Assembly (NCBI GenBank): GCA_903831265.1
Contig: CAIKXD010000081.1
Span: 1,737-65,736 of the forward strand
Length of the DNA: 64,000 bases
Direction of reading: 5' to 3'
Source of the DNA: an uncultured Bacteroidota bacterium
GTDB lineage: Bacteria; Bacteroidota; Bacteroidia; UBA4408
In this document: one piece after another, positions 13,107 through 58,858 of the stretch
How the letters are laid out: each line of letters begins with the position of its first letter
Position numbering within the stretch: position 1 is the first letter of the stretch
Made by a program: the position numbers and the translations under genes
The notes under the pieces: generated by a model
Told to the model about the DNA's origin: nothing
What the model saw: only the letters and a program-made list of their open reading frames with translations
The model's database searches: none

Positions 13107-13111
13107 CAAGC

Positions 13112-20553: not shown

Positions 20554-21255
20554 ATGAATAAAAAATCAACCAAATCAGGATTATTTAGCACCCTCATCGG
20601 AAAAAAGATGTTGATGGGTATAACAGGTCTTTTCCTTATCACTTTTCTTATGGTTCATTGTGGGATTAACATGCTCATTTTTGCTAACGATGGCGGAGTA
20701 TTGTTTAACAAAGGAGCTGAGTTTATGGGAACTAACCCACTAATCAGAATCATGGAAATTGTTTTATTTTTGGGTATTATAGCACATATTGTTGATGCGC
20801 TTGTATTAACTTTAGCAAACAAAAAAAGTCGCTCAGTAAAGTATGCGCATGAAAAACCCAATGCCAATAGTAAATGGTATAGCCGTTGGATGGGCCTTTT
20901 GGGAACTTTAATTTTAATGTTTTTAATTATGCACCTTAACCATTTTTGGATTGTAACTAGATTCACCGATCATATCGCTCACAGTGAATTAGACAAATTG
21001 CCAGGTCAAGAAACCATGTTTGAAGAAATGAAAGAGATATTCGAAAATCCTCTTATTGTGCTCTTATATGTCGCTTCTATGGTTAGTTTAGCTTATCACT
21101 TATTACACGGTTTTCAGTCAGCATTTCAAACTATGGGTTGGAATCATCCAAAATACACACCAGCCATCAAAAAAACAGGTTTTTGGTTTTCTGTTATCAT
21201 TTCAGTTTTATTTGCGATTATGCCTATTGCTATGCACTTAGGTATCATAAAATAG
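20554..21255 (+). CDS. sdhC: succinate dehydrogenase/fumarate reductase cytochrome b subunit
   Basis: 233 aa with five hydrophobic helices and conserved His residues. It sits immediately upstream of sdhA/sdhB. Confidence 0.85.
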   Translation: MNKKSTKSGLFSTLIGKKMLMGITGLFLITFLMVHCGINMLIFANDGGVLFNKGAEFMGTNPLIRIMEIVLFLGIIAHIVDALVLTLANKKSRSVKYAHEKPNANSKWYSRWMGLLGTLILMFLIMHLNHFWIVTRFTDHIAHSELDKLPGQETMFEEMKEIFENPLIVLLYVASMVSLAYHLLHGFQSAFQTMGWNHPKYTPAIKKTGFWFSVIISVLFAIMPIAMHLGIIK

Positions 21256-21307
21256 TAATTCTTGAACCAATAAAAAAATTAAATTAATATCATCAAAATA
21301 AGAAGAT

Positions 21308-23224: not shown

Positions 23225-23261
23225 TAACTAAGTTTAAACAGGTTTTAAATACCTAAATCAT

Positions 23262-24002
23262 ATGAAGTTTAATTTAAAAATATGGCGTCAGAAAAACGCC
23301 CAGGTAGCAGGTAAAATGGTCGATTATGTTATCGACAATATCAACGCGGATATGTCATTTTTAGAAATGATGGATGTGTTGAATGAAGAATTAATAAGAA
23401 AAGGTGATGAGCCTGTGGCATTCGACCACGATTGCCGAGAAGGTATTTGTGGCATGTGCAGTATGCATATTAATGGACGTCCACACGGGCCATTAAGAGG
23501 TACCACCACCTGTCAATTGTACATGCGTAATTTTACCGATGGTGAAACCATTTATATTGAACCATTTAGAGCAGATGCCTTTCCTATAATTCGTGATTTG
23601 GCGGTCGATCGTAGTGCTTTTGATCGTATCATGCAAGTAGGTGGATTTATTTCAGTAAATACAGGCCAAGTGCAAGATGCAAACAATATTCCGGTGAATA
23701 AAGCGGATGCTGATTTAGCAATGGATGCTGCTTCTTGTATAGGCTGTGGAGCCTGCGTGGCTGCTTGCAAAAACGCTTCGGCAAGTTTGTTTGTAAGTGC
23801 TAAAATTTCGCAATACGCACTTTTGCCTCAAGGCAGAATTGAAGCCAAAGAGAGAGTATTAGCTATGGTTAACCAAATGGATGATGAAGGCTTTGGCAGT
23901 TGCACTAACACTGGCGCTTGCGAAGCTGAATGCCCTAAAGGAATATCACTAACCAATATTGCTCGTATGAATAGAGAGTATTATTCAGCTTCTATTTCTT
24001 AA
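23262..24002 (+). CDS. sdhB: succinate dehydrogenase/fumarate reductase iron-sulfur subunit
   Basis: Cys clusters [20 protein letters not shown] and [12 protein letters not shown]. Confidence 0.95.
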
Positions 24003-32154: not shown

Positions 32155-33201
32155 TTACACTTTTTTGAGTGTAAATATAAAGGTTGTTCCTTCACCTTCT
32201 GTACTTTTAACATCAATAGTTTGATTATGAGCTTCAATAATGTGCTTTACAATAGCTAAGCCAAGTCCTGTTCCTCCATGATCTCTAGAGCGTCCTTTAT
32301 CGACACGATAAAATCTTTCAAAAATGCGAGGTAAATGATGCTTTGCAATACCCATTCCATTATCACTTATTTCTATAACTACATGTTGGTATAAATCTGT
32401 AAATCTCACTTGAGATATTCCATCTTGTTTGCCGTATTTGATGGAATTTACAATTAAGTTGGTTACTACTTGTCTGATGTGGTGTTTATCGGCAGAAACA
32501 TAAATAGGCCTGTTGTAATTTTCGGCAAATTTTAGTTTAATATTTCTACCTGATGCTTTCATTTCGAGGCCAAGAAATAATTCGTTAACCAAAGCCACAA
32601 TGTCAAATTTCTCGAAGTATAAACTTAACTCACCCGATTCCATTTGTGAAATAGTATCTAAATCTTCTACAATTGAAATCATGCGCTCAACGCTTTTAGA
32701 TGCTCTAGTAAGATAATCAACATTTATGTTGTCATCCTCTAGCCCACCATCAAGTAATGTAAGAATATACCCTTGAATATTAAAGATGGGTGTTTTAAGT
32801 TCGTGAGAAACATTACCTACAAATTCTCTTCGATAAGCTTCAAGTTTTTTTAACTGTTCAATTTCATTTTTATTGCTCACGGCCCACTGCTGCACATCAG
32901 TATTTATTTCTTTAAAAATATCCTCGCCAAGATCTAAGTTTTCCATACTAAAATCCTTGGATGCTTTTAAATCGTGAACGGTAGTGTAGATGCTTTTAAT
33001 TTTATCGTAAATTAAAATTTTTAAAGAGGCAAATAGTAATAAATACGAAACTGCCATAGTGCCAAATCCAACAAAAAGTAATTGCACATGATTGCTTTCG
33101 GTAAAAGGAATTGGATTGGTAATAATCGAGAGCAATACCACAATTAATGCGATAATGATAGAAACAGCTAAAGCTATATTTCGTGGAGTGAATTTGTTCA
33201 A
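32155..33201 (-). CDS. sensor histidine kinase
   Basis: Two N-terminal transmembrane segments, H-box SHELKTP, N-box NLIVNSIKYG and G2 box GGTGLGLAIVK. Confidence 0.9.
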   Translation of the reverse strand: MNKFTPRNIALAVSIIIALIVVLLSIITNPIPFTESNHVQLLFVGFGTMAVSYLLLFASLKILIYDKIKSIYTTVHDLKASKDFSMENLDLGEDIFKEINTDVQQWAVSNKNEIEQLKKLEAYRREFVGNVSHELKTPIFNIQGYILTLLDGGLEDDNINVDYLTRASKSVERMISIVEDLDTISQMESGELSLYFEKFDIVALVNELFLGLEMKASGRNIKLKFAENYNRPIYVSADKHHIRQVVTNLIVNSIKYGKQDGISQVRFTDLYQHVVIEISDNGMGIAKHHLPRIFERFYRVDKGRSRDHGGTGLGLAIVKHIIEAHNQTIDVKSTEGEGTTFIFTLKKV

Positions 33202-33271
33202 GATGCGGAATTAATCTTTATTAATGTAACAAACAAAAATAAAATAAAATAGTGAGAAAATTGATTTTGGT

Positions 33272-33952
33272 TTATAAATCAAATTTATAGCCCACTCCTT
33301 TGATTGTTTTTATATAATTATCTCCTAATTTTTCTCTTAATTTTCTGATGTGAACGTCAATAGTTCTGTCGCCAACAACCACATCGCCACCCCAAACTTT
33401 ATCAAGAATTTCTTCTCTTAAAAATACTTTCCCTGGCTTCGACATCAACAGGGCCATTAGTTCGAACTCCTTTTTTGGTAAACTTACTGGTGTTCCGTCT
33501 TTAAACACAATAAATTTTTCTCTGTCTAAAACTAATCCGCCAATCTCAGCTTCAATATCTTTTTCATTCGAAAGAAAGCGTCTTAAAATGCCGGCAATTC
33601 TACTCAATAAAACTCTAGGTTTGATTGGTTTGTTGATATAGTCATCAGCACCAGCATCAAATCCTGCAATTTGCGAATAATCTTCATTGCGCGCTGTTAA
33701 AAAGGCAACCAAGGTGTCGGTAAGTGATTTTTCGTTTCTTATCTGACGGCATGTTTCTATACCATCTAATTCTGGCATCATTACATCAAGTAAAATGAGC
33801 TGTGGAAGAATTTCTTTTGCTTTGTTGATAGCGTCTTTACCGTTGTCGCAAACAAAAACTTGATAGCCTTCTCGCTTTAGGTTATAGCTTAAAAATTCTA
33901 AAATATCATTTTCATCATCAACAATTAGAATTTTAATATCTTCTTTATTCAT
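33272..33952 (-). CDS. OmpR/PhoB-family response regulator
   Basis: Receiver domain (DDEND, LLDVMMPELDG) plus a winged-helix C-terminus (RTIDVHIRKLREKL, GVGYKF). Confidence 0.92.
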   Translation of the reverse strand: MNKEDIKILIVDDENDILEFLSYNLKREGYQVFVCDNGKDAINKAKEILPQLILLDVMMPELDGIETCRQIRNEKSLTDTLVAFLTARNEDYSQIAGFDAGADDYINKPIKPRVLLSRIAGILRRFLSNEKDIEAEIGGLVLDREKFIVFKDGTPVSLPKKEFELMALLMSKPGKVFLREEILDKVWGGDVVVGDRTIDVHIRKLREKLGDNYIKTIKGVGYKFDL

Positions 33953-34259: not shown

Positions 34260-34952
34260 CTAAAGTAAATCCATTATTGGTTTAGGAATGCTGTTGTTTG
34301 GCCAAAAGTGATTAATCATATCTGACCAATAAAAAAGCACTTTAAAAACATAAATAGGAGCAGTGAGTTGTTCTTTAAATTGATTGTTTTTATATAATGC
34401 TAAACGCAATCCCATTTCGGTGCCAACTGCAATATAGGGTAATACTCGATAGTTTACACTTAAACATGGTTCATATAAAAGTACCAAATAACTTGGAGAT
34501 TGATAATTATTTTCGAGGTCGGAAAAAGCCACATATTTTGTAGAGCCAACGCCAAGCTGCACTGGAACCGAAAGTTCCCATTTGTTTTTTCGATAATAAA
34601 CATATTCCACATAAAAGCTCACGTAGCGCATGCGTAATGTGGTTTTTATAGGTTCGCCAGTTACAGTTGAAATTAAATTTACCTTTGCAGGAAGTCTAGA
34701 TTTAAGGTAATTATAGCCAACGCCAAATCTAATTCTTCGATTATATCCGATACCAAATTTTATACCCCAAACATTGGCATTTCTATTATCTATAAATGCA
34801 CTTCTGCTATCAAATTTATAATGAAAAACAGGTTTTTTCTTGAGATCAGATTTTATAGAGTCAAACAACTGCGCATTGCAAAATAAGCACTGGCAGCCAA
34901 GCAGCATAAGTAGAATAATCTTTTTTGACTGTATTGATATTGTTTTTTTCAA
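34260..34952 (-). CDS. hypothetical outer-membrane beta-barrel-like protein
   Basis: Signal peptide and alternating hydrophobic beta-strand pattern rich in aromatic residues. Confidence 0.5.
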   Translation of the reverse strand: MKKTISIQSKKIILLMLLGCQCLFCNAQLFDSIKSDLKKKPVFHYKFDSRSAFIDNRNANVWGIKFGIGYNRRIRFGVGYNYLKSRLPAKVNLISTVTGEPIKTTLRMRYVSFYVEYVYYRKNKWELSVPVQLGVGSTKYVAFSDLENNYQSPSYLVLLYEPCLSVNYRVLPYIAVGTEMGLRLALYKNNQFKEQLTAPIYVFKVLFYWSDMINHFWPNNSIPKPIMDLL

Positions 34953-38046: not shown

Positions 38047-38252
38047 ATTTTTACCTATTAACGCCAGCTGAGTTTAATATAAGTGCGCAATAATTGTTTT
38101 TTGATTTACCTCACATATGAATTCATTGGCCTCAATTACCATTCATCATTGTGTGCTTTGATTAATATTGCAGTATATTAATCGTTCAGTTAATAATTTG
38201 TTGTTAATTCAAGTTAGGTGAATTAAGTCTATAAAACATAAATATTGTAAAC

Positions 38253-38495
38253 ATGAAACTAAAAAAAAACATAGCCACAAGTGAAAGTGGTTTCGTATTT
38301 AATCCTAGTTCGGGCGATAGTTTTTCGTTGAACATTATTGGAGCTGAGATATTACTACAAATGAAAGAAAGTAAATCTTCTGACGAAATTAAAAAAGATA
38401 TTCTTAATAGATATGAAGTAGATAAAAGCCTTCTTGAAAAAGATTGGGATGATTTTATGGCACAATTAAAAGACAATAACTTATTAGAGTTTTAG
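38253..38495 (+). CDS. PqqD-family peptide-binding chaperone (RRE-like)
   Basis: 80 aa. The pattern SGFVFNPSSGDSFSLNIIGAEILLQM...SSDEI...YEVD...LEKDWDDFMAQLKDNNLL follows the PqqD/RRE winged-helix layout. It is the first gene of the operon. Confidence 0.7.
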   Translation: MKLKKNIATSESGFVFNPSSGDSFSLNIIGAEILLQMKESKSSDEIKKDILNRYEVDKSLLEKDWDDFMAQLKDNNLLEF

Positions 38496-38510
38496 CTTTT
38501 TTTGATAAAA

Positions 38511-39566
38511 ATGAAAGATACATCAATAAAAAAATTAGTTATCGCCGTAACAGGCCTGAATGCCATTGACAGTCCTGGCCCAGGCATTGCTGTTATTAGA
38601 GGTATTCGTGATTGTAAGGATTGGGATGTGCGCATTATTGGTTTATCATACGAGAGTTTAGAGCCTGGAATTTATATGCACGATGTGGTAGATAAAACTT
38701 ACCAAATTCCATATCCATCTGCAGGAAGCGAAGCGCTTTTAAATCGTTTGATACATATACATGAATCAGAAAAAATTGATGTTATTATTCCTAATTTTGA
38801 TGCAGAGCTACAAAACTTCATTAAAATAAGCAATGATCTCAAAAAAATAGGAATTGGAACATTCTTGCCATCCTTAGCGCAGCTGGAGGCCAGAGATAAA
38901 GTTAATCTTTATCATTTTGGGACTCAACATAACCTGCTTGTACCAGCCGACAGAATTATTTATAAAGTTGACGATTTAAAAAGTGTAATTGATCAATTTG
39001 GTTCTCCCATTGTGGTTAAAGGAAAATACTACGAGGCAGTAGTTACATACACATTAGAGCAAGCGCAAAAAGCATTTCATAAATTACAAGCAAAATGGGG
39101 CTTGCCAATTATTGTTCAACAATTTATTAATGGCACAGAAATAAATATTGCCGCATTGGGCGATGGCAAAGGAAATACAATAAGCGCCATTCCAATGCGC
39201 AAACTATATATTACAGATAAGGGCAAAGCTTGGGCAGGAATTACATTAGAAGATAAATCACTCATTGATTTGGCTAAACATTTTATTTCAGTCACAAAAT
39301 GGAGTGGGGGATTTGAATTGGAAATAATGAGAACAGCAGATAATAAACCTTATATCATGGAAATTAACCCAAGATTTCCGGCATGGATATACTTAACCAC
39401 AGGCGCTGGTCAAAATCAACCAGAAGCTTTGGTTAAAATGGCCTTAGGTGAAGAAGTTAAACCCTATACAGATTACGAAGTTGGTAAAATATTTATCAGA
39501 TACAGTTGGGATTTGATTACCAATATTGAAGAATTTCAAAAAATTTCTGCTTTTGGCGAATTGTAG
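38511..39566 (+). CDS. ATP-grasp ligase
   Basis: ATP-grasp core with IVVKGK, QQFINGTEINIAALGDG and the Mg-binding motif MEINPRFPAW. The ORF is open from the TTG at 38502. Confidence 0.85.
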   Translation: MKDTSIKKLVIAVTGLNAIDSPGPGIAVIRGIRDCKDWDVRIIGLSYESLEPGIYMHDVVDKTYQIPYPSAGSEALLNRLIHIHESEKIDVIIPNFDAELQNFIKISNDLKKIGIGTFLPSLAQLEARDKVNLYHFGTQHNLLVPADRIIYKVDDLKSVIDQFGSPIVVKGKYYEAVVTYTLEQAQKAFHKLQAKWGLPIIVQQFINGTEINIAALGDGKGNTISAIPMRKLYITDKGKAWAGITLEDKSLIDLAKHFISVTKWSGGFELEIMRTADNKPYIMEINPRFPAWIYLTTGAGQNQPEALVKMALGEEVKPYTDYEVGKIFIRYSWDLITNIEEFQKISAFGEL

Positions 39567-39606
39567 CTTAAGCAAATCATATTCATATAACTAAAAACTA
39601 AAAGTT

Positions 39607-40965
39607 ATGTCAAAATTAAAATACGAAAGTCCTGTCATCAAAAAGATGAATGCAGGATTAATGAACAAATTTGGTACACGCACAGAATATCAACCTTTAA
39701 AGCATATTGATGGTGTAGCTGTAAAAGATATGATAGCAAAATATGGTTCACCGCTTTTTGTGTTGTCGGAGCGCAAAATGCGAAATAATTATCAAGCCGC
39801 TCTGCGTGCATTTAAAACGAGGTATCCAAAGGTGCAATTTGCTTGGAGTTATAAAACACACTACAATAATGCAGTATGCAATGTTTATCATCAAGAAGGC
39901 TCGTGGGCTGAGGTTGTTTCAGGATTTGAGTATCAAAAAGCATTGAAAAATGGCGTGCCCGGCAATAAAATTATTTTTAATGGACCTGATAAAAGTATTG
40001 ATGAGTTAAACGAAGCCATAAAAAATGACAGTTTAATACATATTGATCACTTCGATGAGTTATACACCTTGATTGAGCTTTCCGAAAAGGCAGTAAAAAA
40101 GCCAAGAGTGGCCATCAGAGTTAATATGGACACAGGTATTTATCCTTTGTGGGATCGCTTTGGGTTTAATTATGAAAATGGCACAGCATGGAATGCTATC
40201 ACAAAAATTGTGGCATCGGGTAAGTTAAATTTAGTTGGCTTGCATTGTCACATTGGCACTTACATGCTTGCACCATGGGCCTATGCAACGGCAGCATCAA
40301 AGTTGTGTGACCTTGCGTGGCATGCAAAAAATCAATTAAACAATCCGGTTCAATACATTGATCTTGGAGGTGGTTTTCCAAGTGCTAATACGCTTAAGGG
40401 CGCATATTTACCTGGCTCAGATACGGTGCCTCATATTGAAGAATTTGCCGAGGCTATTGCAAGCACAATTATTGCTTATGGCTTTAAACCAGACGAATTG
40501 CCTTTGCTTATTTTAGAAAGTGGTAGAGCATTAATTGATGATGCAGGATATTTATTAGGAACTATTTTAGCCAATAAAAGATTAAGTGATGGGCGAAGAG
40601 CAACAATCTTGGATTTTGGGGTAAATATGCTCTTTACCTCATTTTGGTATGACCATAAAATAAGTCCAGCCCAAGATTTTACGCATCATTCCGAAGATCA
40701 AGTTTTATACGGGCCACTCTGTATGAACATTGATGTTATCAGAGAAAGCGTAAATTTGCCACTTTTAAATAAAGGAGATCAAGTGGTAGTTCATAAAGTT
40801 GGGGCATATAATATGACACAGTGGATGCAGTTTATTGCCATGCGGCCAAATGTGATTATGATTGATATGAAAGGAGAAACTCATTTAATTAGACAAAAGG
40901 AAACATTGCAATATTTAGAAATGCCCGAAGAAATGCCTTTACATTTGAAAGAATTTAAACTGTAA
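39607..40965 (+). CDS. PLP-dependent decarboxylase, Orn/DAP/Arg decarboxylase (alanine-racemase fold) family
   Basis: PLP-lysine context WSYKTH, phosphate loop DLGGGFPS, ESGRAL and active-site Cys in GPLCMNIDV. Confidence 0.88.
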   Translation: MSKLKYESPVIKKMNAGLMNKFGTRTEYQPLKHIDGVAVKDMIAKYGSPLFVLSERKMRNNYQAALRAFKTRYPKVQFAWSYKTHYNNAVCNVYHQEGSWAEVVSGFEYQKALKNGVPGNKIIFNGPDKSIDELNEAIKNDSLIHIDHFDELYTLIELSEKAVKKPRVAIRVNMDTGIYPLWDRFGFNYENGTAWNAITKIVASGKLNLVGLHCHIGTYMLAPWAYATAASKLCDLAWHAKNQLNNPVQYIDLGGGFPSANTLKGAYLPGSDTVPHIEEFAEAIASTIIAYGFKPDELPLLILESGRALIDDAGYLLGTILANKRLSDGRRATILDFGVNMLFTSFWYDHKISPAQDFTHHSEDQVLYGPLCMNIDVIRESVNLPLLNKGDQVVVHKVGAYNMTQWMQFIAMRPNVIMIDMKGETHLIRQKETLQYLEMPEEMPLHLKEFKL

Positions 40966-40975
40966 CTACCAGAAA

Positions 40976-43150
40976 ATGATAGAAAAAAAAGCGAGATTTA
41001 TTTTTGAAGGTGTAATCAACAGTTACGCTGTCTTGTTTTTTTCTAACCACAAGGTGTTTTCTTATTTGTTAATTGCTGTAAGCTTTTTTAACCCCGCTGC
41101 CGGAATGGCTGGTTTGATTGCTGTTTTAACAGCTGTTTTTACAGCCACCACAATGGGCTTTAATGCGGTTGCTACTAGGTCGGGTTTTTATAGTTTTAAT
41201 GCTTTGCTTACAGGTATTGGTTTTGGTTCTTTTTTTGAAAGCTCAGCAGTGTTTTTCTTCCTATTAATACTAGCAGCTTTGTTTACCTTGGTGCTATCCG
41301 TAACACTTAGTGGGGTTTTAGGTAAATATGGATTGCCATTTTTATCTATTCCATTTATTATTACATTTTGGATAATTTTACTGTCAACCAAAGAGTTCAG
41401 TAATTTGGGATTAACTCAAAGAAATATCTATTGGATTAATGAAATGTATGCCGTGGGAGGCAAACCACTTTTAAATTTATTCAACGCCATTGAAAATATT
41501 CCATTACCAAAATGGCTTTCTGTTTATTTTAAAGCACTTAGCGCCATATTCTTTCAAGACAATATATTAAGCGGTTTTTTACTTTCGATTGGCATAATAG
41601 TTTATTCTAGAATTGCTTTTACTTTGAGTTTAGTGGGTTTTTTTGGAGCGTATTTGTTTAACGAATTTACCGGTGCAAACCAGGCAGGAATAAACGCTTA
41701 TCATTTAGGAAGTAATTATATGATGATAGCAATGGCTATTGGTGGTTTCTTTACAATTTCCAGTGTTTACAGTTATTTATGGGCATTTTTGAGTGTTCCA
41801 ATTACTAATATTTTGGTGATTTCACTTTCAAAAGTTTTTGGAGTATTTCTTTTGCCAATTTTCTCGTTACCTTTTTGTATAATGATTTTGCTTTATTTAT
41901 ACTTTTTAAAATTGCGTGTTTTTGCCCAAAAATTGGTTTTAACGCCAATTCAACATTATTCTCCAGAAATTAATTTATATCAATTTAAAAATGGAAGTGA
42001 ACGATTAAAAAATGAATATTATTTTAAATTTAACTTACCTATAATTGGCGAATGGTTAGTTACCCAAGGTTATGATGGTAAAATTACGCATAAAGAAGAT
42101 TGGAGTAAGGCGTTGGATTTTATGATTTTAGATCACCAACTTAAATCATTCTCTGGCAAAGGTAACGCCCTTGAAAATTTTTATAGTTATAATAAACCTG
42201 TATTAGCGCCAGGTGATGGCTATGTGCAGGAAATAGTCGACTACATTGATGACAATCCAATAGGAGAAATTAATCGAGAACAAAACTGGGGGAATTCAAT
42301 TGTATTATTTCATGCAACAGGTTTATTTTCTAAGTTATCGCACCTAAAGAAAAACTCCTTTATTGTAAAGCAAGGCGAATATGTAAAAAAAGGACAGGTG
42401 TTAGCTTATTGTGGCAACTCTGGTAGGTCACCTGAGCCACATTTGCATTTTCAAATTCAATCAACACCCTACATTGGTAGTAAAACATTAGCTTATCCAA
42501 TTAGTTATTTTTATCAAGGTGATGGAAAAGAAATTAAATATAAAACATTTTCTACTCCGCAGGAAGGCAGTTTTGTTGCCAATATCAATATCAATAAATT
42601 GTTACAGCAAGCATTTGCTTTTCAACCCGGATATAGCATTAAATTTAAAGAAGGAAACATAATTGAAACTTGGACTGTATATACAGATGCCTACAATCTA
42701 ACCTATATTAGTTGTAAAGAAAACAATGCAGTGGCGTATTTTATAAACAACGAAACGGTATTTTATTTTACAAACTTTTATGGAAGTAAAAACTCCATGC
42801 TTTATCAGTTCTACTTGTCTGTTTTTAAAGTTGTATTTAGTTATATGCCACAAGTTACCATTGATGATGTGCTGCCTTTAAGCATAGTGAAAGCGCCTAT
42901 TGTCAAAATAATACAAGATTTTGTGGCTCCCTTTGTACAACTAATAAAACCAAAGTATATGTTAAACTACACAAGTATTGATGATGAGTATTTTACCTCT
43001 GAAATCAAACTTGAATCGGTGATAGAGATTGATGTGATGAGGCACAAACGTATTTATAGAACAAGCCAGATTACCTTAAGTAATGGAAGATTAAATCAAT
43101 TAGTGATTAATGAAGCCGGAAAAGAAAGAGTATTTACATGTATAGATTAG
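40976..43150 (+). CDS. urea-transporter-like membrane domain fused to M23 metallopeptidase domain
   Basis: The N-terminal ~330 aa are polytopic and start GVINSYAVLFFSN (the UT-family SYSQVFF-type motif). The C-terminal part has the M23 signature H..DWSKALDF...GNSGRSPEPHLHFQI. Confidence 0.8.
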   Translation: MIEKKARFIFEGVINSYAVLFFSNHKVFSYLLIAVSFFNPAAGMAGLIAVLTAVFTATTMGFNAVATRSGFYSFNALLTGIGFGSFFESSAVFFFLLILAALFTLVLSVTLSGVLGKYGLPFLSIPFIITFWIILLSTKEFSNLGLTQRNIYWINEMYAVGGKPLLNLFNAIENIPLPKWLSVYFKALSAIFFQDNILSGFLLSIGIIVYSRIAFTLSLVGFFGAYLFNEFTGANQAGINAYHLGSNYMMIAMAIGGFFTISSVYSYLWAFLSVPITNILVISLSKVFGVFLLPIFSLPFCIMILLYLYFLKLRVFAQKLVLTPIQHYSPEINLYQFKNGSERLKNEYYFKFNLPIIGEWLVTQGYDGKITHKEDWSKALDFMILDHQLKSFSGKGNALENFYSYNKPVLAPGDGYVQEIVDYIDDNPIGEINREQNWGNSIVLFHATGLFSKLSHLKKNSFIVKQGEYVKKGQVLAYCGNSGRSPEPHLHFQIQSTPYIGSKTLAYPISYFYQGDGKEIKYKTFSTPQEGSFVANININKLLQQAFAFQPGYSIKFKEGNIIETWTVYTDAYNLTYISCKENNAVAYFINNETVFYFTNFYGSKNSMLYQFYLSVFKVVFSYMPQVTIDDVLPLSIVKAPIVKIIQDFVAPFVQLIKPKYMLNYTSIDDEYFTSEIKLESVIEIDVMRHKRIYRTSQITLSNGRLNQLVINEAGKERVFTCID

Positions 43151-44337
43151 CATTAATAATATTGCTTTGTAGTGTAGGCCTTTTAAAAGGTCAGCAAATA
43201 ACTTATGGCTATATTGATAGCTTAAGCTACGCGCAATATATAGCAGGTGATTGGGACAACTTAATACAAACTGCAAACGTTGCTAAAAAGGCTGATATAA
43301 CTTTTCCTTTATTGAATATGAGAATTGGATATGCAGCCTTTATGAAAGGTAATAATAGTTTATCACTAAAACATTATACAAATGCATTGGAGTTTGATAG
43401 TTTTAATCAGGATGCACTTTATTATGCAGTACTAAACAATACCTTGCTTTCAAGAAGAGACGCTGCTGCCTATATTTCTTTAAATTTAAATGATGATCGA
43501 AAAAAGCCTTTAAATGTTGGATATAAAAAATGGGTTGAATTAATTGATGTGGAATCAAGCCTTAAACCCACTAATACTGAAACACGCAAGGTGGGCCAAT
43601 ACTATAGGTTTGGCATTGGTAATAGAATTAATTATCGTTGGAGACTTTATCATAGTTTAATATCCTATCGTCAACATTTATTGACCCCAAATAATGATAT
43701 AAATTCTGGCCCTCCTAATAGAAATAAGCCAACAACATTTAGAAGTTATTTAGCAAATGATTATCAGTATTATTTAAAATCTGAAGTGTTTTTAAATTCG
43801 AAGTTATCATTAATCAATGCTTTTCATTATACCTCTACTTATTTTGATAATGCAACTTATACTACATGTATAGTTAATATAGGTCTTAAGTTAACGCAGC
43901 CTTATCTTGATTATAAACTAGAGCTAAATGTTGGTCAAATACTCGGCTCATTGGAAACTCAAGTAGCAGTTTCCTCTACCTATTATCCATTTGGAAATTT
44001 AAATTTTTATGGAAACAGTAGGTTGAGCTTTCAAACCGGAACCAATATATCGCAAATAAATTACGCTCAAATGTTTGGATTTAAATTAAGCAGTAAAGTG
44101 TGGCTAGAAACACATGCCACATTGGGCCAAATTAAAAACTTAATGGATAACGAAGCGCTTTATATTTATGATGCACTTGATGTTGGAAAATTTAGAATAG
44201 GGGCCTCATTACTTATTCCTTTCAACTCAAAATTTACTTTACTAACCAGTTATTATTACGAGCAAAAACAATTATATTTACAAAACACCAAATACAACTT
44301 AAATTCATTTACAATAGGAATATCATGGAAACTTTAA
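43138..44337 (+). CDS. hypothetical secreted protein, TPR-like N-terminus and beta-barrel-like C-terminus
   Basis: Signal peptide. Aromatic-rich alternating strands run to the C-terminus (FTIGISWKL). It overlaps both neighbouring genes by 13 nt. Confidence 0.55.
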   Translation: MYRLALIILLCSVGLLKGQQITYGYIDSLSYAQYIAGDWDNLIQTANVAKKADITFPLLNMRIGYAAFMKGNNSLSLKHYTNALEFDSFNQDALYYAVLNNTLLSRRDAAAYISLNLNDDRKKPLNVGYKKWVELIDVESSLKPTNTETRKVGQYYRFGIGNRINYRWRLYHSLISYRQHLLTPNNDINSGPPNRNKPTTFRSYLANDYQYYLKSEVFLNSKLSLINAFHYTSTYFDNATYTTCIVNIGLKLTQPYLDYKLELNVGQILGSLETQVAVSSTYYPFGNLNFYGNSRLSFQTGTNISQINYAQMFGFKLSSKVWLETHATLGQIKNLMDNEALYIYDALDVGKFRIGASLLIPFNSKFTLLTSYYYEQKQLYLQNTKYNLNSFTIGISWKL

Positions 44338-44945
44338 AAAAAATAATTTTTACCATTGCCATTATAACTGTGCAAAATTATGTTCATGCGCAAACAGAAA
44401 TTGCTCAGCAAAAAGCTTTCTCGGCAAGTTATGTAGCCGAATCAAAGTATAATTATACAGAGGCAATTAACCAAATTAATAACGTATATCTAGAGCAAAA
44501 TTATGAAATGAATTTACGTTTAGGATGGCTAAACTATCTTGCAAAGAACTACACAAATTCAGTTAAGTTTTATGAAAAAGCTACCATGCTCAAGCCATAT
44601 GCCATTGAAGCTAAATTTGGGCTTATAAAACCACAAGCAGTGCTCGAAAGTTGGGATAAAGTAATAAAACAGTATGAATCTATTTTAAGTATTGATCCTC
44701 AAAATACTACTGCAAATTATTATTTAGGTTACGCATTATACAACAGAAAACAATATGAAGCAGCCTCTAAACATTTTGAAAAGGTGGTTAATTTATACCC
44801 ATTTGATTACCAAAATTCAATTATGTTGGCGTGGAGCTATTTGCGACTTGGAAAAAATAATGAAGCAAAGATACTTTTCAATAAAGTATTGATGATGAGT
44901 CCCAACGATGCCTCAGCTTTGGAGGGTTTAGCTTTAATTAAGTAA
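44325..44945 (+). CDS. TPR-repeat protein (secreted)
   Basis: Signal peptide ending VHAQT. TPR units include NYYLGYALYNRKQYEAASKHFEKVV and MLAWSYLRLGKNNEAKILFNKVL. Confidence 0.7.
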   Translation: METLKKIIFTIAIITVQNYVHAQTEIAQQKAFSASYVAESKYNYTEAINQINNVYLEQNYEMNLRLGWLNYLAKNYTNSVKFYEKATMLKPYAIEAKFGLIKPQAVLESWDKVIKQYESILSIDPQNTTANYYLGYALYNRKQYEAASKHFEKVVNLYPFDYQNSIMLAWSYLRLGKNNEAKILFNKVLMMSPNDASALEGLALIK

Positions 44946-44982
44946 CAAAAAAAGCTGTGTTGAAATTTCAACACAGCTTTTT
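44945..44982. terminator. bidirectional rho-independent terminator
   Basis: A-run, then stem AAGCTGTGTTGAAA / TTTCAACACAGCTT (44951-44978), then T-run. It lies between convergent genes. Confidence 0.85.
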
Positions 44983-45001
44983 TATGATAATACCTTGTTT
45001 G

Positions 45002-45442
45002 TTACTGTTTAAATCCTACTAATACAGCAGCGCATCCTGTTTTGCTTAAATCGTTTGATGTTTTAGGAGCAGGCGGAATAATTACCACTACTTTCATTTG
45101 TTGCGTACTTGCAACTTCAAATTCCCAAAACTTGGCAAAGTTGTGATCCTTATTGTCAAAAACTAATTTATTTTTATTGTCAAAAACTTGAAATTGAGCC
45201 TTCCCAATGGCATCCTGACAACAGATGAGTAATCGATAGCTCATTCCTGAATAAAATGTCAAATCTAATTCGGCTTCTTCTCCGGGTGCCATCTGTTGTA
45301 TGTTCAATTGCCCATTGTGTGTGAATGGATTCAATTCGGGCATACATGTTTTTTTTGCAAATTGATTGCATTGCGCTTTTGAAATTCCTGCAGTTCCTGC
45401 AATTAGGAATAAGGAGAATAGTATTTTTATGGTTGTTTTCAT
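45002..45442 (-). CDS. hypothetical secreted protein
   Basis: 146 aa with a signal peptide ending SKAQ. Confidence 0.55.
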   Translation of the reverse strand: MKTTIKILFSLFLIAGTAGISKAQCNQFAKKTCMPELNPFTHNGQLNIQQMAPGEEAELDLTFYSGMSYRLLICCQDAIGKAQFQVFDNKNKLVFDNKDHNFAKFWEFEVASTQQMKVVVIIPPAPKTSNDLSKTGCAAVLVGFKQ

Positions 45443-45462: not shown

Positions 45463-46353
45463 CTAACTAACAATCATGGTTCTAATGGCAGTAATTTTTT
45501 TGGTTATTTCTGCTAATTGCTCTGGAGTTAAAGTTAATTCACCACCTGAACCAATTACTGTTTTTTGAGCAGCATTATCTGTTTTGACCTCCGAAGCAGG
45601 AACTTCGGTTATTGTTACTTTGTCATAAATTGTTTTCAATGATTTAATCTCAGCCATAATCTCAGGCGCATTTTCATTGGCCTCATTACTTTCTAATAGG
45701 CCAATCAGATTTTCTAAAACTAGTTTTTGTTCAGCAATTCTCTTTACTATCATTTGATTGTTAGCATTTTGAGCTGCGATATTGACAGAAATATACAAGC
45801 CTTCTAACCAACCACCTGCAACTACTAGAGCAGAAACACCGGCACGGTCGTTATTTTTAAGGTAAATATCTGTCTCTAGATAAGTATCAGAAATAATTTT
45901 TAACAATGAGTCTTTATTGTTTAAGTTTTCCTCCATGCGTTTAACCGTTCTTTCGTTTATAGCTCCTGTAATTCCTAATCCATCGGCTAGTTTTTTACAA
46001 ACACCCATGTAAACCATTGCATCTTGTGTTTGATCAAAAGTACTGGTATAACTAAGATCTGCTCCATAAATGCCGAGGTTCATTGCTTTTTGAATGATTG
46101 AAGTATACTTGGCTTCATTAGTAGCCGGATTCAACATGTTTTTGTTGTAATTGGCACCAGTTGCTTTTATCATGGCCGATAGCTCACTCGGTGAAGGAAC
46201 GGCATAAAACACCTTTGAAACTTTGTTTTTACTATCTAAAGCAGCTGAATCTACATCTTCAGTATCCGACTTAGAGCCATTATTACAAGCAAATAATGAT
46301 GAGATAATTGCCAAAGCAATTACAAAATTTAATTTAGCATTTAACCACTTCAT
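45463..46353 (-). CDS. hypothetical lipoprotein
   Basis: Lipobox LFAC. The mature part is predicted to be helical. Confidence 0.6.
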   Translation of the reverse strand: MKWLNAKLNFVIALAIISSLFACNNGSKSDTEDVDSAALDSKNKVSKVFYAVPSPSELSAMIKATGANYNKNMLNPATNEAKYTSIIQKAMNLGIYGADLSYTSTFDQTQDAMVYMGVCKKLADGLGITGAINERTVKRMEENLNNKDSLLKIISDTYLETDIYLKNNDRAGVSALVVAGGWLEGLYISVNIAAQNANNQMIVKRIAEQKLVLENLIGLLESNEANENAPEIMAEIKSLKTIYDKVTITEVPASEVKTDNAAQKTVIGSGGELTLTPEQLAEITKKITAIRTMIVS

Positions 46354-46499: not shown

Positions 46500-48056
46500 A
46501 TGCAAATAATTATTGCTCTTCTTTTTGCAACTGCTCTAGCTTGGCTCACGTTTAGCTGGAAATTCATCATTAACAAAGAAAATCGCTCAGGTACCTTTTG
46601 CGGTATTTTTGTATTGAAACTGCTTTTTGGTGTAGGTTTTTATTTGGTTTATACTGTTTACTATAGCGATAGTCAAACTAGTGATATGCACAAATATTAT
46701 AATGATGCCGTAAAGATATTTGAACTTACTAAGGAAAAACCACGCTCTTATTTTAGCATTTTAACAGGTGTTCAAATGAATAGTAATGATGAAATGATTA
46801 CCCAACAACTTAGTTTTTGGTATCAAGAAGAAAGTGCCTCGGTCATTAATGATTCTAGAATGATTATCCGTTTTAATTTAATGATGCTCCCATTTAGCCG
46901 AGGCAATATTTATCTGCATTTAGTAATGATGGTTTTTCTTTCATTTATAGGACTCTATTTTATTTATTTGAGTTTCGAGAAATCATTTAAAGATAAAGAA
47001 ATTTTGCTCTTGATTGCATGTTTTGGTATACCTTCTGTTATGTTCTGGTCGTCAGGTATTATGAAAGAAGGTTTACTCGTTTTTTTCTTTGGGATATTGA
47101 TTCATTGTTTATTTGGGAGGAATGAAAAAAAATATAAAACGGTCCTGCTTTTTTTACTTTCAATTGGTGGGATGTTTTTGTCAAAATTTTATGTGGCATT
47201 GGCACTTTTTCCATCCCTCATTTTTCTTTTGATAGGATTAATTTATAAAAAAAAATCTCCACTATGGCATCTCATTACCACCGGCATTATAGTAATTATT
47301 AGTACATTTAGTTTTAACACGGCTTTTAATAATTTGCCACTTCAAAAATTATCCAAAAAGCAAAACGACTTTATCAATTTATCCATAGGGGGTGTTTATT
47401 TAGTCAACACAAACTATCCTAATGATACTATTTTTACACTCCACCAGCGTTCGTTAACTTATACTGCTAATTTAATTGAAAGAAAAACAGCAACATTAAA
47501 AACTGGAACTATTTATCATCATTGGGATAATCCGGGCTATGCCGATACACTGCTAGCCATCAATAACCAAAATATTTATCAGGTAATTAAGGTGCTGGAT
47601 TCTACAGGAAGTGCTATATCTCTTAAAAGATTAATGCCTAACTATAGCAGCGTAATTCGTTTGTTTCCTGTGGCTTTTATCAATGTTTTTTTTAGGCCTT
47701 TTATCTGGGATGTTGAAAATGCGTTATCTCTTTTTGCATGTATCGAAAATATTGTATTAATCTTCTTATTTTGTATGATGATTTATTTTTATCAAAAACC
47801 TTCCAATGCTAATCAAAAAATAATTATTTTTTCTTTACTTTTTGTTTTTACTCTTTACTCGTTGGTGGGCTTAACAACCCCTGTTTTGGGCGCTGCGGTA
47901 AGATATAAGGCACCAGCCTTGCCGTTTTTGCTTATAAGTATATTTTTACTTTGCGACTTCACTAAATTCAAACTTCGCTTGAAACGAGTTAGTAAGCATT
48001 TCAATAAACAACAAAATAGCAATAAATTGAGTGCAAATACAAGTGCAAAACACTAA
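46500..48056 (+). CDS. hypothetical polytopic membrane protein
   Basis: 518 aa with at least 10 hydrophobic helices. The layout resembles glycosyltransferase-C / polymerase-like proteins, but I recognised no motif. Confidence 0.6.
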   Translation: MQIIIALLFATALAWLTFSWKFIINKENRSGTFCGIFVLKLLFGVGFYLVYTVYYSDSQTSDMHKYYNDAVKIFELTKEKPRSYFSILTGVQMNSNDEMITQQLSFWYQEESASVINDSRMIIRFNLMMLPFSRGNIYLHLVMMVFLSFIGLYFIYLSFEKSFKDKEILLLIACFGIPSVMFWSSGIMKEGLLVFFFGILIHCLFGRNEKKYKTVLLFLLSIGGMFLSKFYVALALFPSLIFLLIGLIYKKKSPLWHLITTGIIVIISTFSFNTAFNNLPLQKLSKKQNDFINLSIGGVYLVNTNYPNDTIFTLHQRSLTYTANLIERKTATLKTGTIYHHWDNPGYADTLLAINNQNIYQVIKVLDSTGSAISLKRLMPNYSSVIRLFPVAFINVFFRPFIWDVENALSLFACIENIVLIFLFCMMIYFYQKPSNANQKIIIFSLLFVFTLYSLVGLTTPVLGAAVRYKAPALPFLLISIFLLCDFTKFKLRLKRVSKHFNKQQNSNKLSANTSAKH

Positions 48057-57333: not shown

Positions 57334-58137
57334 ATGACAATTATCCACGCGCTAATTTTAGCGATTATTGAAGGGCTTACAGAATTTCTCCCGGTTTCAT
57401 CAACTGGTCATCTTATCATTGGATCATCAATTATGGGTCTTTTGCAAGATGAAACAACCAAAGAATTTACTAAATTTTTCCTAGTTTCTATACAATTTGG
57501 ATGTATCCTTTCTGTAATGGTGCTTTATTGGAAAGACTTCTTCCAAAGTATTGATTTTTACTTTAAACTTTTTATCGCTTTTATTCCAGCCCCAGTTTTT
57601 TATTTTATTTTTAAAAAAACTATTGATGGGTTTCTTGAAAATGTAATTACAGTAGCCGTTTCATTAGTTATTGGTGGTTTAATTCTATTATTCGTTGATA
57701 AATGGTTCGAAGTTAAAGAAGATGAAGAAGAGCCTTTAGATAATAAAAAGGCACTAAAAATCGGACTTTTTCAAACAATTTCAATGATTCCAGGGGTTTC
57801 TAGATCTGCAGCAACAATTATTGGTGGCTTATCACAAAAATTGACAAGAAAAAAAGCAGCAGAATTTTCATTCGTCTTAGCTGTTCCAACTATATTTAGC
57901 GCATCTGTTTACAAATTATTTTCATACGTAAAGGATGGTGCTAGTTTCGAAGCTAACCAAGTTCATTTGCTTGTGCTTGGCAATGTAGTAGCATTTCTGG
58001 TTGGTGTGCTTGCTATTAAATACTTTATAGGCTATCTCACAAAATATGGATTCAAATTGTTTGGTTACTACAGAATTGCTATCGGTTTAACTATACTAGT
58101 GCTCCACTTTATGGGTATTAAACTAGGAATGCTGTAA
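57334..58137 (+). CDS. uppP: undecaprenyl-diphosphate phosphatase
   Basis: [15 protein letters not shown] and [10 protein letters not shown] motifs. Confidence 0.93.
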
Positions 58138-58141
58138 TCTT

Positions 58142-58858
58142 TTGAATATACCAGAAATCACACTTGAATCATTAAAAACAGGTTCAGTTTTATTAATTGA
58201 CAAACCCATTAAATGGACCTCCTTTGATGTGGTAAACTACATAAGAAAGTCTATTAATGTTAAAATTGGTCATGCAGGAACCCTTGATCCTCTTGCTAGT
58301 GGTCTGTTGATACTTTGTACAGGCAAAATGACCAAACAAATTGACAACTATCAAGGAATGGACAAAGAGTATACGGGAACTATTATTCTTGGCCAAACAA
58401 CACCTTCTTTTGATTTGGAAACAGAAATATCAGATACAAAGGATTGTTCATCAATCAGTGACAAAGAAATATACGATTTGGCGAATCAAATGATTGGTGC
58501 ACAAAACCAAATTGCTCCTTCATATTCGGCAAAAAAAATTGATGGAGAACGTGCATATCATAAAGCAAGGAGGGGCGAGGATGTGGAACTAAAAGCAAGA
58601 GAAATTGAAATCAAAGAATTCGATATTATTGAAATCACAAGAAACAGTGATCTTATTAATGTAAATTTTAGAATTGTATGTTCCAAAGGCACGTACATAA
58701 GAGCTATTGCACGAGATTTTGGCCTGAAACTTAATAATATAGCATACCTCTCAAATCTTGTAAGAACTAAAATTGGGCAGTTTAACTTGAGTGATGCCCT
58801 AACTTTGGATGCTTTTAAAATACTATTTCCTGTACCATTCAAATATAAACAACCTTAA
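58142..58858 (+). CDS. truB: tRNA pseudouridine(55) synthase
   Basis: Catalytic Asp motif HAGTLDPLASGLL and GTYIRA. TTG start. Confidence 0.9.
   Translation: MNIPEITLESLKTGSVLLIDKPIKWTSFDVVNYIRKSINVKIGHAGTLDPLASGLLILCTGKMTKQIDNYQGMDKEYTGTIILGQTTPSFDLETEISDTKDCSSISDKEIYDLANQMIGAQNQIAPSYSAKKIDGERAYHKARRGEDVELKAREIEIKEFDIIEITRNSDLINVNFRIVCSKGTYIRAIARDFGLKLNNIAYLSNLVRTKIGQFNLSDALTLDAFKILFPVPFKYKQP

Follow-up and report, generated by a model that had tools for sequence, protein, structure and literature searches.

A conserved six-gene module of Bacteroidota that probably makes and exports a small amine-containing compound

A six-gene operon in a 64,000-nucleotide stretch of DNA from an uncultured Bacteroidota bacterium (assembly GCA_903831265.1, contig CAIKXD010000081.1, positions 1,737 to 65,736; hereafter the window) probably makes and exports a small amine-containing compound. 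The list of open reading frames (ORFs) of the window has six of them at 38253-44945, all on the + strand, encoding in this order a stand-alone PqqD-type protein, which is an RRE (recognition element of RiPPs, peptides made by the ribosome and modified after translation), an ATP-grasp ligase, a pyridoxal phosphate (PLP)-dependent decarboxylase, a urea transporter (UT) domain fused to an M23 metallopeptidase domain (UT-M23), an outer-membrane protein (ORF5) and a tetratricopeptide repeat (TPR) protein. Searches of the open-access literature, NCBIfam (June 2026), Pfam, PADLOC and Rfam yielded no described pathway of this composition, in agreement with the initial annotation of this DNA, which knew of no characterised one, and the module is absent from a phylogenomic survey of graspetides. 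It matches no described pathway and appears to be a new kind of system.

The module is widely conserved as a unit. One genome per species was scanned for relatives of the ATP-grasp protein, which were present in at least 581 genomes, and the best 80 loci of these were compared. Except for three records (one 'metagenome' and two with proteobacterial names), the 80 best loci carry the titles of Bacteroidota metagenome-assembled genomes (MAGs), with Chitinophagaceae, Paludibacter, Prolixibacteraceae, Lentimicrobiaceae, Rikenellaceae, Sphingobacteriales and 'Flavobacteriia' among the groups, and the Bacteroidota carriers, at least several hundred species, come from water, sediment and soil. All six genes stand in the same order in each of the 58 loci whose contig spans the region (58/58). 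The genes flanking them vary from locus to locus; an upstream acyltransferase gene and a downstream gene of 146 codons are common only to the two closest MAGs, both entitled 'Bacteroidia bacterium' (L005 and L006). Because set and order are kept in 58/58 loci while the flanks differ, the arrangement is far beyond chance. The initial annotation had treated the six genes as one unit, to be given up if the set did not recur in other genomes; the neighbourhood analysis supports the unit, and the co-occurrence is clear. Median identities across the loci are 72% for the ATP-grasp protein, 73% for the decarboxylase, 58% for PqqD, 54% for the TPR protein, 47% for UT-M23 and 29% for ORF5.

The genes are tightly packed, with gaps of 6 or 15, 40 and 10 nt followed by two overlaps of 13 nt each, the first gap depending on the start codon of the ATP-grasp gene. 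Most homologues of this protein have 351 aa, which favours the ATG at 38511 over the upstream TTG. The operon ends at a hairpin with a 16-pair stem, which also serves the convergent gene at 45002-45442. This co-directional layout with its gaps and overlaps, and a strong terminator at its end, had been described from the letters beforehand and agree with the ORF list and the hairpin; the motifs EINPRFPAW, WSYKTH, GGGFPS, GPLCMNID and HLHFQI, cited at that time as intact catalytic motifs, are all present in the translations, and the catalytic residues are indeed intact and conserved in homologues. The domain calls were likewise borne out by a Pfam search, which gives PqqD, ATP-grasp, Orn_Arg_deC_N with its C-terminal domain, UT with Peptidase_M23, and TPR. 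None of the six proteins (0/6) reaches the cut-off of a curated NCBIfam model. PADLOC models also match 0/6, and an anti-phage defence system was rejected. Present annotations of these genes as 'carbamoyl-phosphate synthase large subunit', 'diaminopimelate decarboxylase' and 'urea transporter/MepM' are probably misleading in all three cases.

The best match of the decarboxylase in the PDB is the N-citrylornithine decarboxylase FigC/FslC (7kh2, 1e-52), ahead of the archaeal diaminopimelate (DAP) decarboxylase (DAPDC) and of BtrK (3.5e-21). The specificity positions have been named in a structural paper on FigC (PMC7857480); in FigC, changes at the DAPDC residue R343 and at the one residue following the catalytic Cys accommodate an N-acylated diamino acid. 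In the window enzyme, a Thr is aligned with R343 of MjDAPDC, the residue that binds the distal carboxylate. The Cys loop is CMNID, compared with CMQHD in FigC and CESSD in DAPDC, so that Met follows the catalytic Cys as in FigC, and the specificity helix is FTSFWY versus PTISTY in FigC. Both the Cys loop and the specificity helix are invariant in 76 homologues. These residues point to a substrate whose distal end would be acylated or uncharged, that is, an amino acid ligated via its side chain. The initial annotation had proposed that a pre-made amine is ligated; the FigC-like residues rather suggest that ligation would come first and that the conjugate would be decarboxylated second. It had also asked whether the enzyme might be the housekeeping copy of lysA or speC. 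LysA is rejected both by score (TIGR01048, 213.4 bits against a cut-off of 297.9) and by the active site, where the distal-carboxylate Arg and the acidic residue after the Cys are replaced. Membership in FslC/FigC proper is not indicated either, the score to NF041039 being 204 bits against a cut-off of 500, and no IucA/IucC gene is present in any locus; the resemblance to FigC is one of active-site type only.

The ATP-grasp protein is 67-90% identical across Bacteroidota, and its invariant residues include K170, K172, E269, E271, E284, N286 and R288. Its relatives number in the thousands, with 71-93% identity among the matches listed. Sequence and profile searches of the PDB gave remote solved matches only, namely 2pn1, carbamoyl-phosphate synthase (CPSase), PurD and Ddl. 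A graspetide ligase was considered and rejected, as neither TIGR0418x nor any other graspetide model of NCBIfam matches; the best models are the CPSase-like PRK12767, below cut-off. A solitary paralogue, 45% identical, is found at 8001-9056 of another locus (L088) in the company of neither PqqD nor decarboxylase nor UT; its neighbours are a 1263-aa protein of no known family and genes whose products have PTL_trimer and T6SS_HCP domains.

The initial annotation was right about the 80-aa protein, which is a genuine PqqD protein of the RRE type: with a profile built from 29 homologues, its closest solved relatives are the leader-binding RREs of lasso peptide pathways, TbiB1 (5v1u, 1e-10) and TfuB1 (6jx3, 2e-6). 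It had been concluded from this fold that the substrate is a peptide. The RRE part of that argument stands, but no precursor ORF is found within 10 kb, and a candidate ligand is found on the decarboxylase instead. Precursors were sought in the intergenic regions of four loci, by clustering of ORFs of at least 25 aa and by sensitive clustering of 1126 intergenic short ORFs. Neither in the operon nor within 10 kb of it is any small ORF (18-75 aa) conserved in 84 loci; the recurrent small ORFs are only shadow ORFs of the six genes. A role in PQQ biosynthesis was rejected, since PqqA, PqqB, PqqC and PqqE are missing from the operon and from related loci and the score to TIGR03859, 15.9, stays below the cut-off of 46. 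A carrier protein was also rejected: although the C-terminus is often Glu or Asp, the ending is variable and no tail extends beyond the domain. The PqqD family spans residues 15-78 of the 80, and neither a match to acyl carrier proteins nor a phosphopantetheine site was detected in the small protein.

The candidate ligand lies in an N-terminal extension of about 20 residues, which the decarboxylase has and both LysA and FigC lack. In the window it contains Y6-E-S-P9-V-I11, and the consensus of the tail in the 76 homologues is KLRYERPxIxKMNxGLMNKFGTRTEY, with Y6 and P9 at 100% and L, I, V or M at position 11 in 99%. Diverged variants keep the motif as YEKPRL (L093), YSRPVI (L096) and YQPPLI (L092), and it recurs as YVRPSI in the linker of the P0353 fusion protein described below. 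Lasso B1 proteins recognise YxxPxL (PMC10368454). Among 823 other ORFs of at least 200 aa in the loci, four have YxxPx[IL] in their first 30 residues. The YxxPx[IL] tail of the decarboxylase is thus a candidate ligand of the PqqD protein.

More distant relatives disclose gene fusions that bear on how the first three proteins work together. A search of the full library with the ATP-grasp protein gave 227 cluster representatives at E <1e-30. Loci of 55-57% G+C, in which this protein is 49% (L093/L094) and 45% (L096) identical, have the entire six-gene arrangement (L093/L094) or, on a short contig, its visible part consisting of PqqD, ATP-grasp, decarboxylase and UT-M23 (L096). Others are rearranged. 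One locus of 70% G+C (L086) encodes a TPR lipoprotein, PqqD, a tandem double ATP-grasp protein of 711 aa, the decarboxylase and a UT-SIR2 fusion, and another (L092) a TPR protein, PqqD fused to ATP-grasp, a further ATP-grasp protein that is degenerate (hhalign probability 98%), the decarboxylase and a UT-SIR2-GNAT fusion. A third type (L089-L091) combines a TPR protein of giant size with TonB_C and HEAT proteins, PqqD, a fusion of ATP-grasp and decarboxylase (871 aa) and a hybrid kinase; a 637-aa protein of the L089 variant was considered as a relative of UT-M23 and turned out to be unrelated. PqqD is fused to ATP-grasp in P0378 and ATP-grasp to the decarboxylase in P0353, the other partners of the module being otherwise kept. 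From these fusions it follows that PqqD, ligase and decarboxylase are tied together physically. The core of the wider family, which in high-GC phyla is rearranged, is made up of PqqD and ATP-grasp proteins, a decarboxylase of the FigC type, a UT fusion and a TPR protein, and the C-terminus of the UT protein carries interchangeable enzymes acting on amides or amines, M23 in Bacteroidota and SIR2 or SIR2-GNAT elsewhere.

The AlphaFold2 model of UT-M23 (predicted local distance difference test score, pLDDT, 88) has a complete UT fold followed by an amphipathic helix and an M23 fold. In the M23 domain, the zinc ligands and the catalytic His (H372, D381, H489 and H491) are invariant in 33 sequences, and Foldseek matches it to DipM, ShyA and Csd. 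The C-terminal domain (505-724), rich in β-strands, is modelled with confidence and moderately conserved; it has no sequence match in Pfam or the PDB, and all 50 Foldseek matches listed for the protein are UT or M23 structures. The polar ladder of the UT pore is conserved but altered: Q(Pa) is replaced by S23, T(5a) by S124 and T(5b) by S297, while Q(Pb) is kept as Q194. The TIGR03441 score of 111.7 lies below the cut-off of 274.6; the fold of a urea transporter is present but not its full urea recognition motif. Conservation of the pore positions Q194, S124 and S297 suggests a working channel rather than a mere anchor.

The metallopeptidase domain had been placed in the periplasm by the initial annotation. 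A UT fold begins and ends in the cytoplasm, and the UT fold here is complete; in mammals, two UT units stand in tandem in UT-A1. The loop between the two repeats (residues about 143-178) aligns with the stretch of human UT-A1 carrying an N-I-T sequon, which we take to be its extracellular glycosylated loop. According to hydropathy, no hydrophobic segment follows residue 318 of the 724-aa protein, and the linker (312-352) has seven K/R versus three D/E. Because of the N-in/C-in fold, the lack of a later membrane segment and the K/R-rich linker, the M23 domain and the C-terminal domain are most likely cytoplasmic, contrary to the periplasmic placement. The distant relatives, in which SIR2 or SIR2-GNAT takes the position of M23, lend this prediction independent support, since SIR2 and GNAT are NAD- and acetyl-CoA-dependent enzymes.

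For the envelope part of the module, the initial annotation had called ORF5 a barrel-like outer-membrane protein, and AlphaFold2 and Foldseek agree. In the model (pLDDT 89), a signal peptide is followed by a helical domain like those of TPR proteins (23-125) and this by a β-barrel of 14 strands (131-398); the Foldseek matches include PorV, FadL, OmpG, PelBC and BcsC. Its profile matches TPR proteins over residues 39-125, and no family of Pfam or NCBIfam, including those of DUF560, PgaA and BcsC, matches it. The 206-aa TPR protein matches several TPR families of Pfam, TPR_Slam and PgaA weakly, and is present in every variant of the module.

Table 1. Features of the six-gene operon and its control elements in the window
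Feature	Position	Strand	Evidence or remark
PqqD/RRE stand-alone protein, 80 aa, cytoplasmic	38253..38495	+	Pfam PqqD 5e-12
ATP-grasp amide ligase	38511 (ATG, 351 aa) or 38502 (TTG, 354 aa)..39566	+	Pfam ATPgrasp_Ter, ATP-grasp_3
Fold-type III PLP decarboxylase, FigC/DAPDC clade, 452 aa	39607..40965	+	Best PDB match 7kh2
Y6-E-S-P9-V-I11 motif, lasso-leader-like, candidate RRE ligand	39622..39639	+	N-terminal extension of decarboxylase
UT-M23 fusion protein, 724 aa	40976..43150	+	Pfam UT and Peptidase_M23
UT channel domain, residues 1-315	40976..41920	+	Pfam UT 3e-49; Foldseek TM-score 0.85 to dvUT 3me1
M23 metallopeptidase domain, residues ~355-500, predicted cytoplasmic	42038..42475	+	Pfam Peptidase_M23 9e-16
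β-rich C-terminal domain, residues ~505-724, with stop codon	42488..43150	+	Modelled with confidence
ORF5, outer-membrane protein, 399 aa	43138..44337	+	AlphaFold2 model
TPR protein, secreted (periplasmic), 206 aa	44325..44945	+	TPR families of Pfam; signal-peptide-like N-terminus
Intrinsic-terminator hairpin AAAAAAGCTGTGTTGAAATTTCAACACAGCTTTTTT, bidirectional, operon end	44948..44983	.	16-pair stem, A/T runs on both sides
CCTCA-N16-CCTCA boxes, 21-bp spacing, candidate LytTR-type operator	38109..38134	+	144 and 123 nt upstream of the PqqD ATG

In many lineages the module has its own regulators. A co-directional pair of genes for a histidine kinase (PF06580) and a LytTR response regulator adjoins it in about 33 of 83 Bacteroidota loci (~40%), in most cases directly upstream of the PqqD gene, in two directly downstream of the TPR gene (for example at 5852-7634 of L001, 7652-9500 of L034, 7776-9641 of L060 and 10627-12518 of L082, with about 30 further loci). 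Pfam confirms all five sampled pairs (5/5), and precomputed Pfam matches confirm the pair of L001/L002. Between Paludibacter, Prolixibacteraceae, Lentimicrobiaceae and Rikenellaceae, the LytTR regulators share 54-84% identity, and they therefore belong to a dedicated orthologous system. Upstream of the PqqD gene, a 9-mer direct repeat is found in 26 of 80 loci against 12.7 expected, in 20 of these with a spacing of precisely 21 bp; their distance from the ATG is 67-220 nt, in most loci 85-145 nt, examples being TTTCACTGA twice (TTTCACTGA-N12-TTTCACTGA) and TTCGTATCT twice. Direct repeats spaced by 21 bp are the classic geometry of LytTR operators.

In the window, CCTCA-N16-CCTCA occurs once in 64 kb against 0.04 expected, and in the alignment with L005 and L006 its two boxes are conserved islands in a spacer that has otherwise diverged. 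In at least 20 other loci, direct repeats of 21-bp period occupy the corresponding position. The boxes are a candidate operator for a response regulator of LytTR type. Near the operon in the window, neither a LytTR regulator nor such a two-component pair was found; the nearest two-component system (32155-33952, - strand), 4.3 kb upstream, is of OmpR type (HisKA/HATPase with Trans_reg_C) and is not conserved with the module, and ten other candidate ORFs are housekeeping genes. Rfam gave no riboswitch or known RNA upstream of the operon in the window or in seven loci, two weak matches on the terminator hairpin being due to chance. A scan for sigma-70 promoters showed no enrichment (38 found, 46 expected), which is unsurprising for Bacteroidota.

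From these observations we infer a chemistry, an order of steps, a topology, a direction of transport and a ligand of the RRE as follows. PqqD/RRE, ATP-grasp ligase and FigC-like decarboxylase would form one physically coupled unit in the cytoplasm. With ATP, the ligase would couple an amino acid, most likely a diamino acid of the ornithine, lysine or DAP type, through the end of its side chain to a carboxylate, leaving the α-amino and α-carboxyl groups of the amino acid free; the decarboxylase would then strip the α-carboxylate of the conjugate to yield an amide ending in a primary amine. Probably the RRE grips the YxxPx[IL] tail of the decarboxylase and thereby holds the complex together, instead of presenting a separate precursor. 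At the cytoplasmic end of the UT channel, the amide-cleaving M23 domain and the C-terminal domain would process the conjugate at the mouth of the channel, and the small polar product would leave through the UT pore, whose polar ladder is built of smaller side chains than that of genuine urea channels. The outer-membrane part would consist of the TPR protein in the periplasm and the TPR-barrel protein, and in many lineages the dedicated LytS-type kinase and LytTR regulator would switch the operon on via the 21-bp direct repeats. The reading we tentatively prefer is thus an amide-linked amine as the product of ligase and decarboxylase in a coupled unit, with processing at the channel mouth and export. 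A bolder form of it, which as a whole we consider doubtful, is that the RRE has been repurposed to bind the leader-like tail of the decarboxylase and not a precursor peptide, so assembling or gating a ligase-decarboxylase complex docked on a UT-fold exporter of a new kind with interchangeable amide-acting enzymes, and that together with the TPR protein and the barrel these form a hitherto unrecognised route for making and releasing an amine metabolite or signal in several phyla, under LytTR control in many lineages.

Several points weigh against this proposal. The findings at the level of the genes are solid, but every chemical step in it is derived from family resemblance, and the ATP-grasp protein is only remotely related to characterised ligases, so that its substrates are unreadable from sequence. 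The match of the tail to YxxPx[IL] was found after the fact; with a background of about 0.5% per protein and six proteins examined it is a lead, not proof, and in one variant (L086) the tail is YEPMRL with a shifted Pro. Even a fusion of ligase and decarboxylase retains the motif and is accompanied by a separate PqqD, and therefore simple tethering is not the whole story; a precursor peptide may also have its gene at another place in the genome. That M23 is cytoplasmic is a prediction from homology and hydropathy. The UT pore is very narrow and even with Ser may pass only urea-sized molecules, and the UT domain could instead be a membrane anchor or a sensor. Finally, a small-molecule product goes poorly with TPR proteins, whose usual ligands are peptides, proteins or polymers.

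The last of these points would suit a RiPP-like pathway, as envisaged by the initial annotation. In such a pathway, the RRE would present a peptide encoded elsewhere, the ATP-grasp enzyme and the decarboxylase would add an amine-bearing modification, M23 would remove the leader, and the product would be exported across the envelope. The relationship of the PqqD protein to lasso leader-binding proteins agrees with such a pathway, M23 peptidases cut peptide bonds, TPR and TPR-barrel proteins suit a peptide cargo, and the LytTR pair adjoining the module recalls the classical control of peptide-signal loci by LytTR regulators. However, the search around 84 loci gave no precursor gene, the ATP-grasp protein is unrelated to graspetide ligases, and enzymes that remain 67-92% identical across orders are unusual among RiPP tailoring enzymes. 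Moreover, a peptide cannot pass a UT pore, and a PLP decarboxylase of fold type III needs a free α-amino acid moiety, so that only a residue linked via its side chain could serve as its substrate. We regard a RiPP-like pathway as unlikely.

Alternatively, the module might handle cell-wall peptides: M23 would cut stem or cross-linked peptides, the DAPDC-like enzyme would decarboxylate the free D-centre of peptide-bound meso-DAP, the ATP-grasp enzyme would re-ligate the products in the manner of Ddl or Mpl, and the envelope proteins would connect the process to the wall. The M23 domain is indeed closest to the peptidoglycan endopeptidases Pgp3, MepM, ShyA and DipM, an enzyme of the DAPDC clade lacking the residues that bind a free distal amine and carboxylate is what one would expect for a distal centre embedded in a peptide, weak matches of the ATP-grasp protein are of the Ddl type, and LytS/LytTR systems are linked to control of murein hydrolases in Firmicutes. 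This is nevertheless quite improbable, because the M23 domain is predicted to be in the cytoplasm, away from the wall, its replacement by SIR2 or GNAT misfits peptidoglycan cleavage, UT is no peptide transporter, no recycling genes of Mur, Amp or Ldc type recur in the 84 neighbourhoods, and a module present in only part of the phylum does not belong to core wall metabolism.

A sensing device is very improbable. The UT domain would in that case admit or sense a small periplasmic solute such as urea or an amide and control the fused M23, SIR2 or GNAT domain, which together with the ligase and the decarboxylase would reversibly modify an intracellular protein, e.g. acylate a lysine or a C-terminus and deacylate it again. 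It would explain why the domains fused to UT (peptidase, sirtuin deacylase and acetyltransferase) all act on protein or peptide amides, why the Q(Pb) pocket facing the periplasm is conserved while the cytoplasmic Q(Pa) is replaced, and why a dedicated two-component system is associated with the module, but UT domains have no precedent as sensors, an outer-membrane barrel is hard to explain in a system that only senses, and reversible modification of proteins is not known to involve the chemistry of a decarboxylase. Ordinary metabolism, with a housekeeping lysA or polyamine enzyme, a urea channel for nitrogen and meaningless clustering, is hardly credible: the top NCBIfam match of the decarboxylase is lysA and the UT domain matches urea transporters, but both scores are below their curated cut-offs as given above, the DAP-binding Arg and the acidic residue after the Cys are replaced, the gene order is invariant in all spanning loci with different flanks, fusions link PqqD, ligase and decarboxylase, and no urease genes recur nearby.

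The proposed ligation followed by decarboxylation has counterparts in known systems. In the rhizoferrin pathway of Francisella (FigA/FigC, or FslA/FslC) and in staphyloferrin B synthesis (SbnH), an amide ligase acts on the side-chain amine of a diamino acid and a DAPDC-like enzyme decarboxylates the conjugate. The window enzyme shares with FigC the Met after the catalytic Cys and a Thr/Tyr specificity helix but differs from it in having Ile for H357 and Trp for T330. In addition, the ligase is an ATP-grasp protein and not a synthetase of the NRPS-independent siderophore (NIS) type IucA/IucC, no exporter of the major facilitator superfamily or TonB-dependent receptor recurs near the module, and the rhizoferrin pathway has nothing that corresponds to PqqD, UT-M23, the barrel or the TPR protein. 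Butirosin biosynthesis has a trio of adjacent genes, for a small protein (BtrI), an ATP-grasp ligase (BtrJ) and a PLP decarboxylase resembling DAPDC (BtrK), the last of which works on an amino acid that by then is linked via its side chain. BtrK is a detectable homologue of the window decarboxylase. The small protein here has a PqqD/RRE fold, however, and is not an acyl carrier protein, having neither a flexible tail nor a phosphopantetheine site, and aminoglycoside genes are absent from the module.

Other parts of the module resemble other systems. As in lasso peptide pathways, a B1-like RRE, a YxxPx[IL] tail encoded in the operon, an ATP-dependent amide-forming enzyme and a peptidase occur together; a lasso cluster was rejected, because neither a B2 cysteine protease of transglutaminase type nor a C lactam synthetase (asparagine-synthetase-like cyclase) nor a precursor gene stands beside the RRE, and the motif is located on a 452-aa enzyme and lacks the leader Thr at -2. 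With the urea transporters dvUT, UT-A and UT-B the UT domain shares the complete fold, the LPxxS/T motifs on T5a and T5b, and Q(Pb), and it departs from them by the fused M23 and further domain, by Ser in place of Q(Pa) and of both pore Thr, and by the absence of urease genes from the vicinity. PelB/PelC, BcsC, PgaA, AlgK/AlgE and Slam likewise combine TPRs in the periplasm with a barrel in the outer membrane, in one protein or as a pair, and the barrel of Slam also has 14 strands. Unlike these exporters, the module has neither sequence-level membership in their families nor a glycosyltransferase or polymer synthase, and the barrel of ORF5 is small (~270 aa), with its best structural matches among the generic 14-strand proteins PorV, FadL and OmpG. 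By analogy, the cytoplasmic peptidase fused to a membrane export protein in our proposal, with cleavage coupled to export, would resemble peptidase-containing ATP-binding cassette (ABC) transporters, from which it would differ in having M23 instead of C39, a UT channel instead of an ABC transporter, and another energy source. Collectively, the module shares its logic with FigA/FigC, BtrI/BtrJ/BtrK, lasso B1 and TPR-barrel exporters, and fails the defining tests of each.

If the preferred proposal is true, the module would represent a new biosynthetic logic, in which ligation by an ATP-grasp enzyme is assisted by an RRE and followed by decarboxylation of the conjugate, and it would reveal a probably widespread amine-containing metabolite or signal as well as the use of a UT fold as an export channel with a fused cytoplasmic processing enzyme. 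The PqqD protein might be the first RRE that recognises the tail of an enzyme and not a precursor peptide, which would change the way 'RRE-containing' clusters are read in genome mining.

Additional genes are inserted in or near the module in some lineages. In loci resembling those of Lentimicrobiaceae, a 266-aa secreted protein with the C-terminal sorting domain of type IX secretion is encoded between the PqqD and ATP-grasp genes (9114-9914 of L025; also L029, L031, L047, L050, L062 and L075); its N-terminal domain matches no family. DUF2202 ferritin-like lipoproteins are encoded inside the operon between the ligase and decarboxylase genes (L050 11285-12019 and L047 11218-11985) or just upstream of the PqqD gene (L081 8748-9428, L055 8746-9402 and L073 4104-4745), a recurrence which hints at a link to metal. 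Neither a TonB-dependent receptor nor an NIS synthetase (IucA/IucC) recurs in the neighbourhoods of the loci, and the idea of a siderophore as the product is weak. An Acyl_transf_3 membrane protein is present in some loci. In a Bacteroidales MAG (L003 9045-9163 and 10526-10817), enlarged operon gaps are filled with G+C-rich palindromes (CCCCCAAAGGGGG-like and GGGGAGGTCGGGAGGGG), which have the look of repetitive extragenic palindromic elements.

The window has about 33% G+C, and the genes around the module (20554-24002, 12114-13819, 46500-48056 and 57334-58858) are ordinary housekeeping genes, which places the module in the core chromosome and not in an island. They include membrane and iron-sulfur subunits of succinate dehydrogenase/fumarate reductase with one large ORF between them; further neighbours are a PGI-like SIS protein, a lipoate-protein ligase, a PMT_2 glycosyltransferase, the undecaprenyl-diphosphatase BacA and TruB. 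Two secreted proteins of no Pfam family (45002-45442 and 45463-46353, both - strand) converge on the operon terminator; the former, of 146 aa, is 86% identical in the closest MAG (L006) and lies outside the conserved module. The protein encoded at 34260-34952 (- strand), of 230 aa, has a signal peptide, matches no Pfam family and shows a sequence pattern suggestive of a small outer-membrane β-barrel; it is unrelated to the module.

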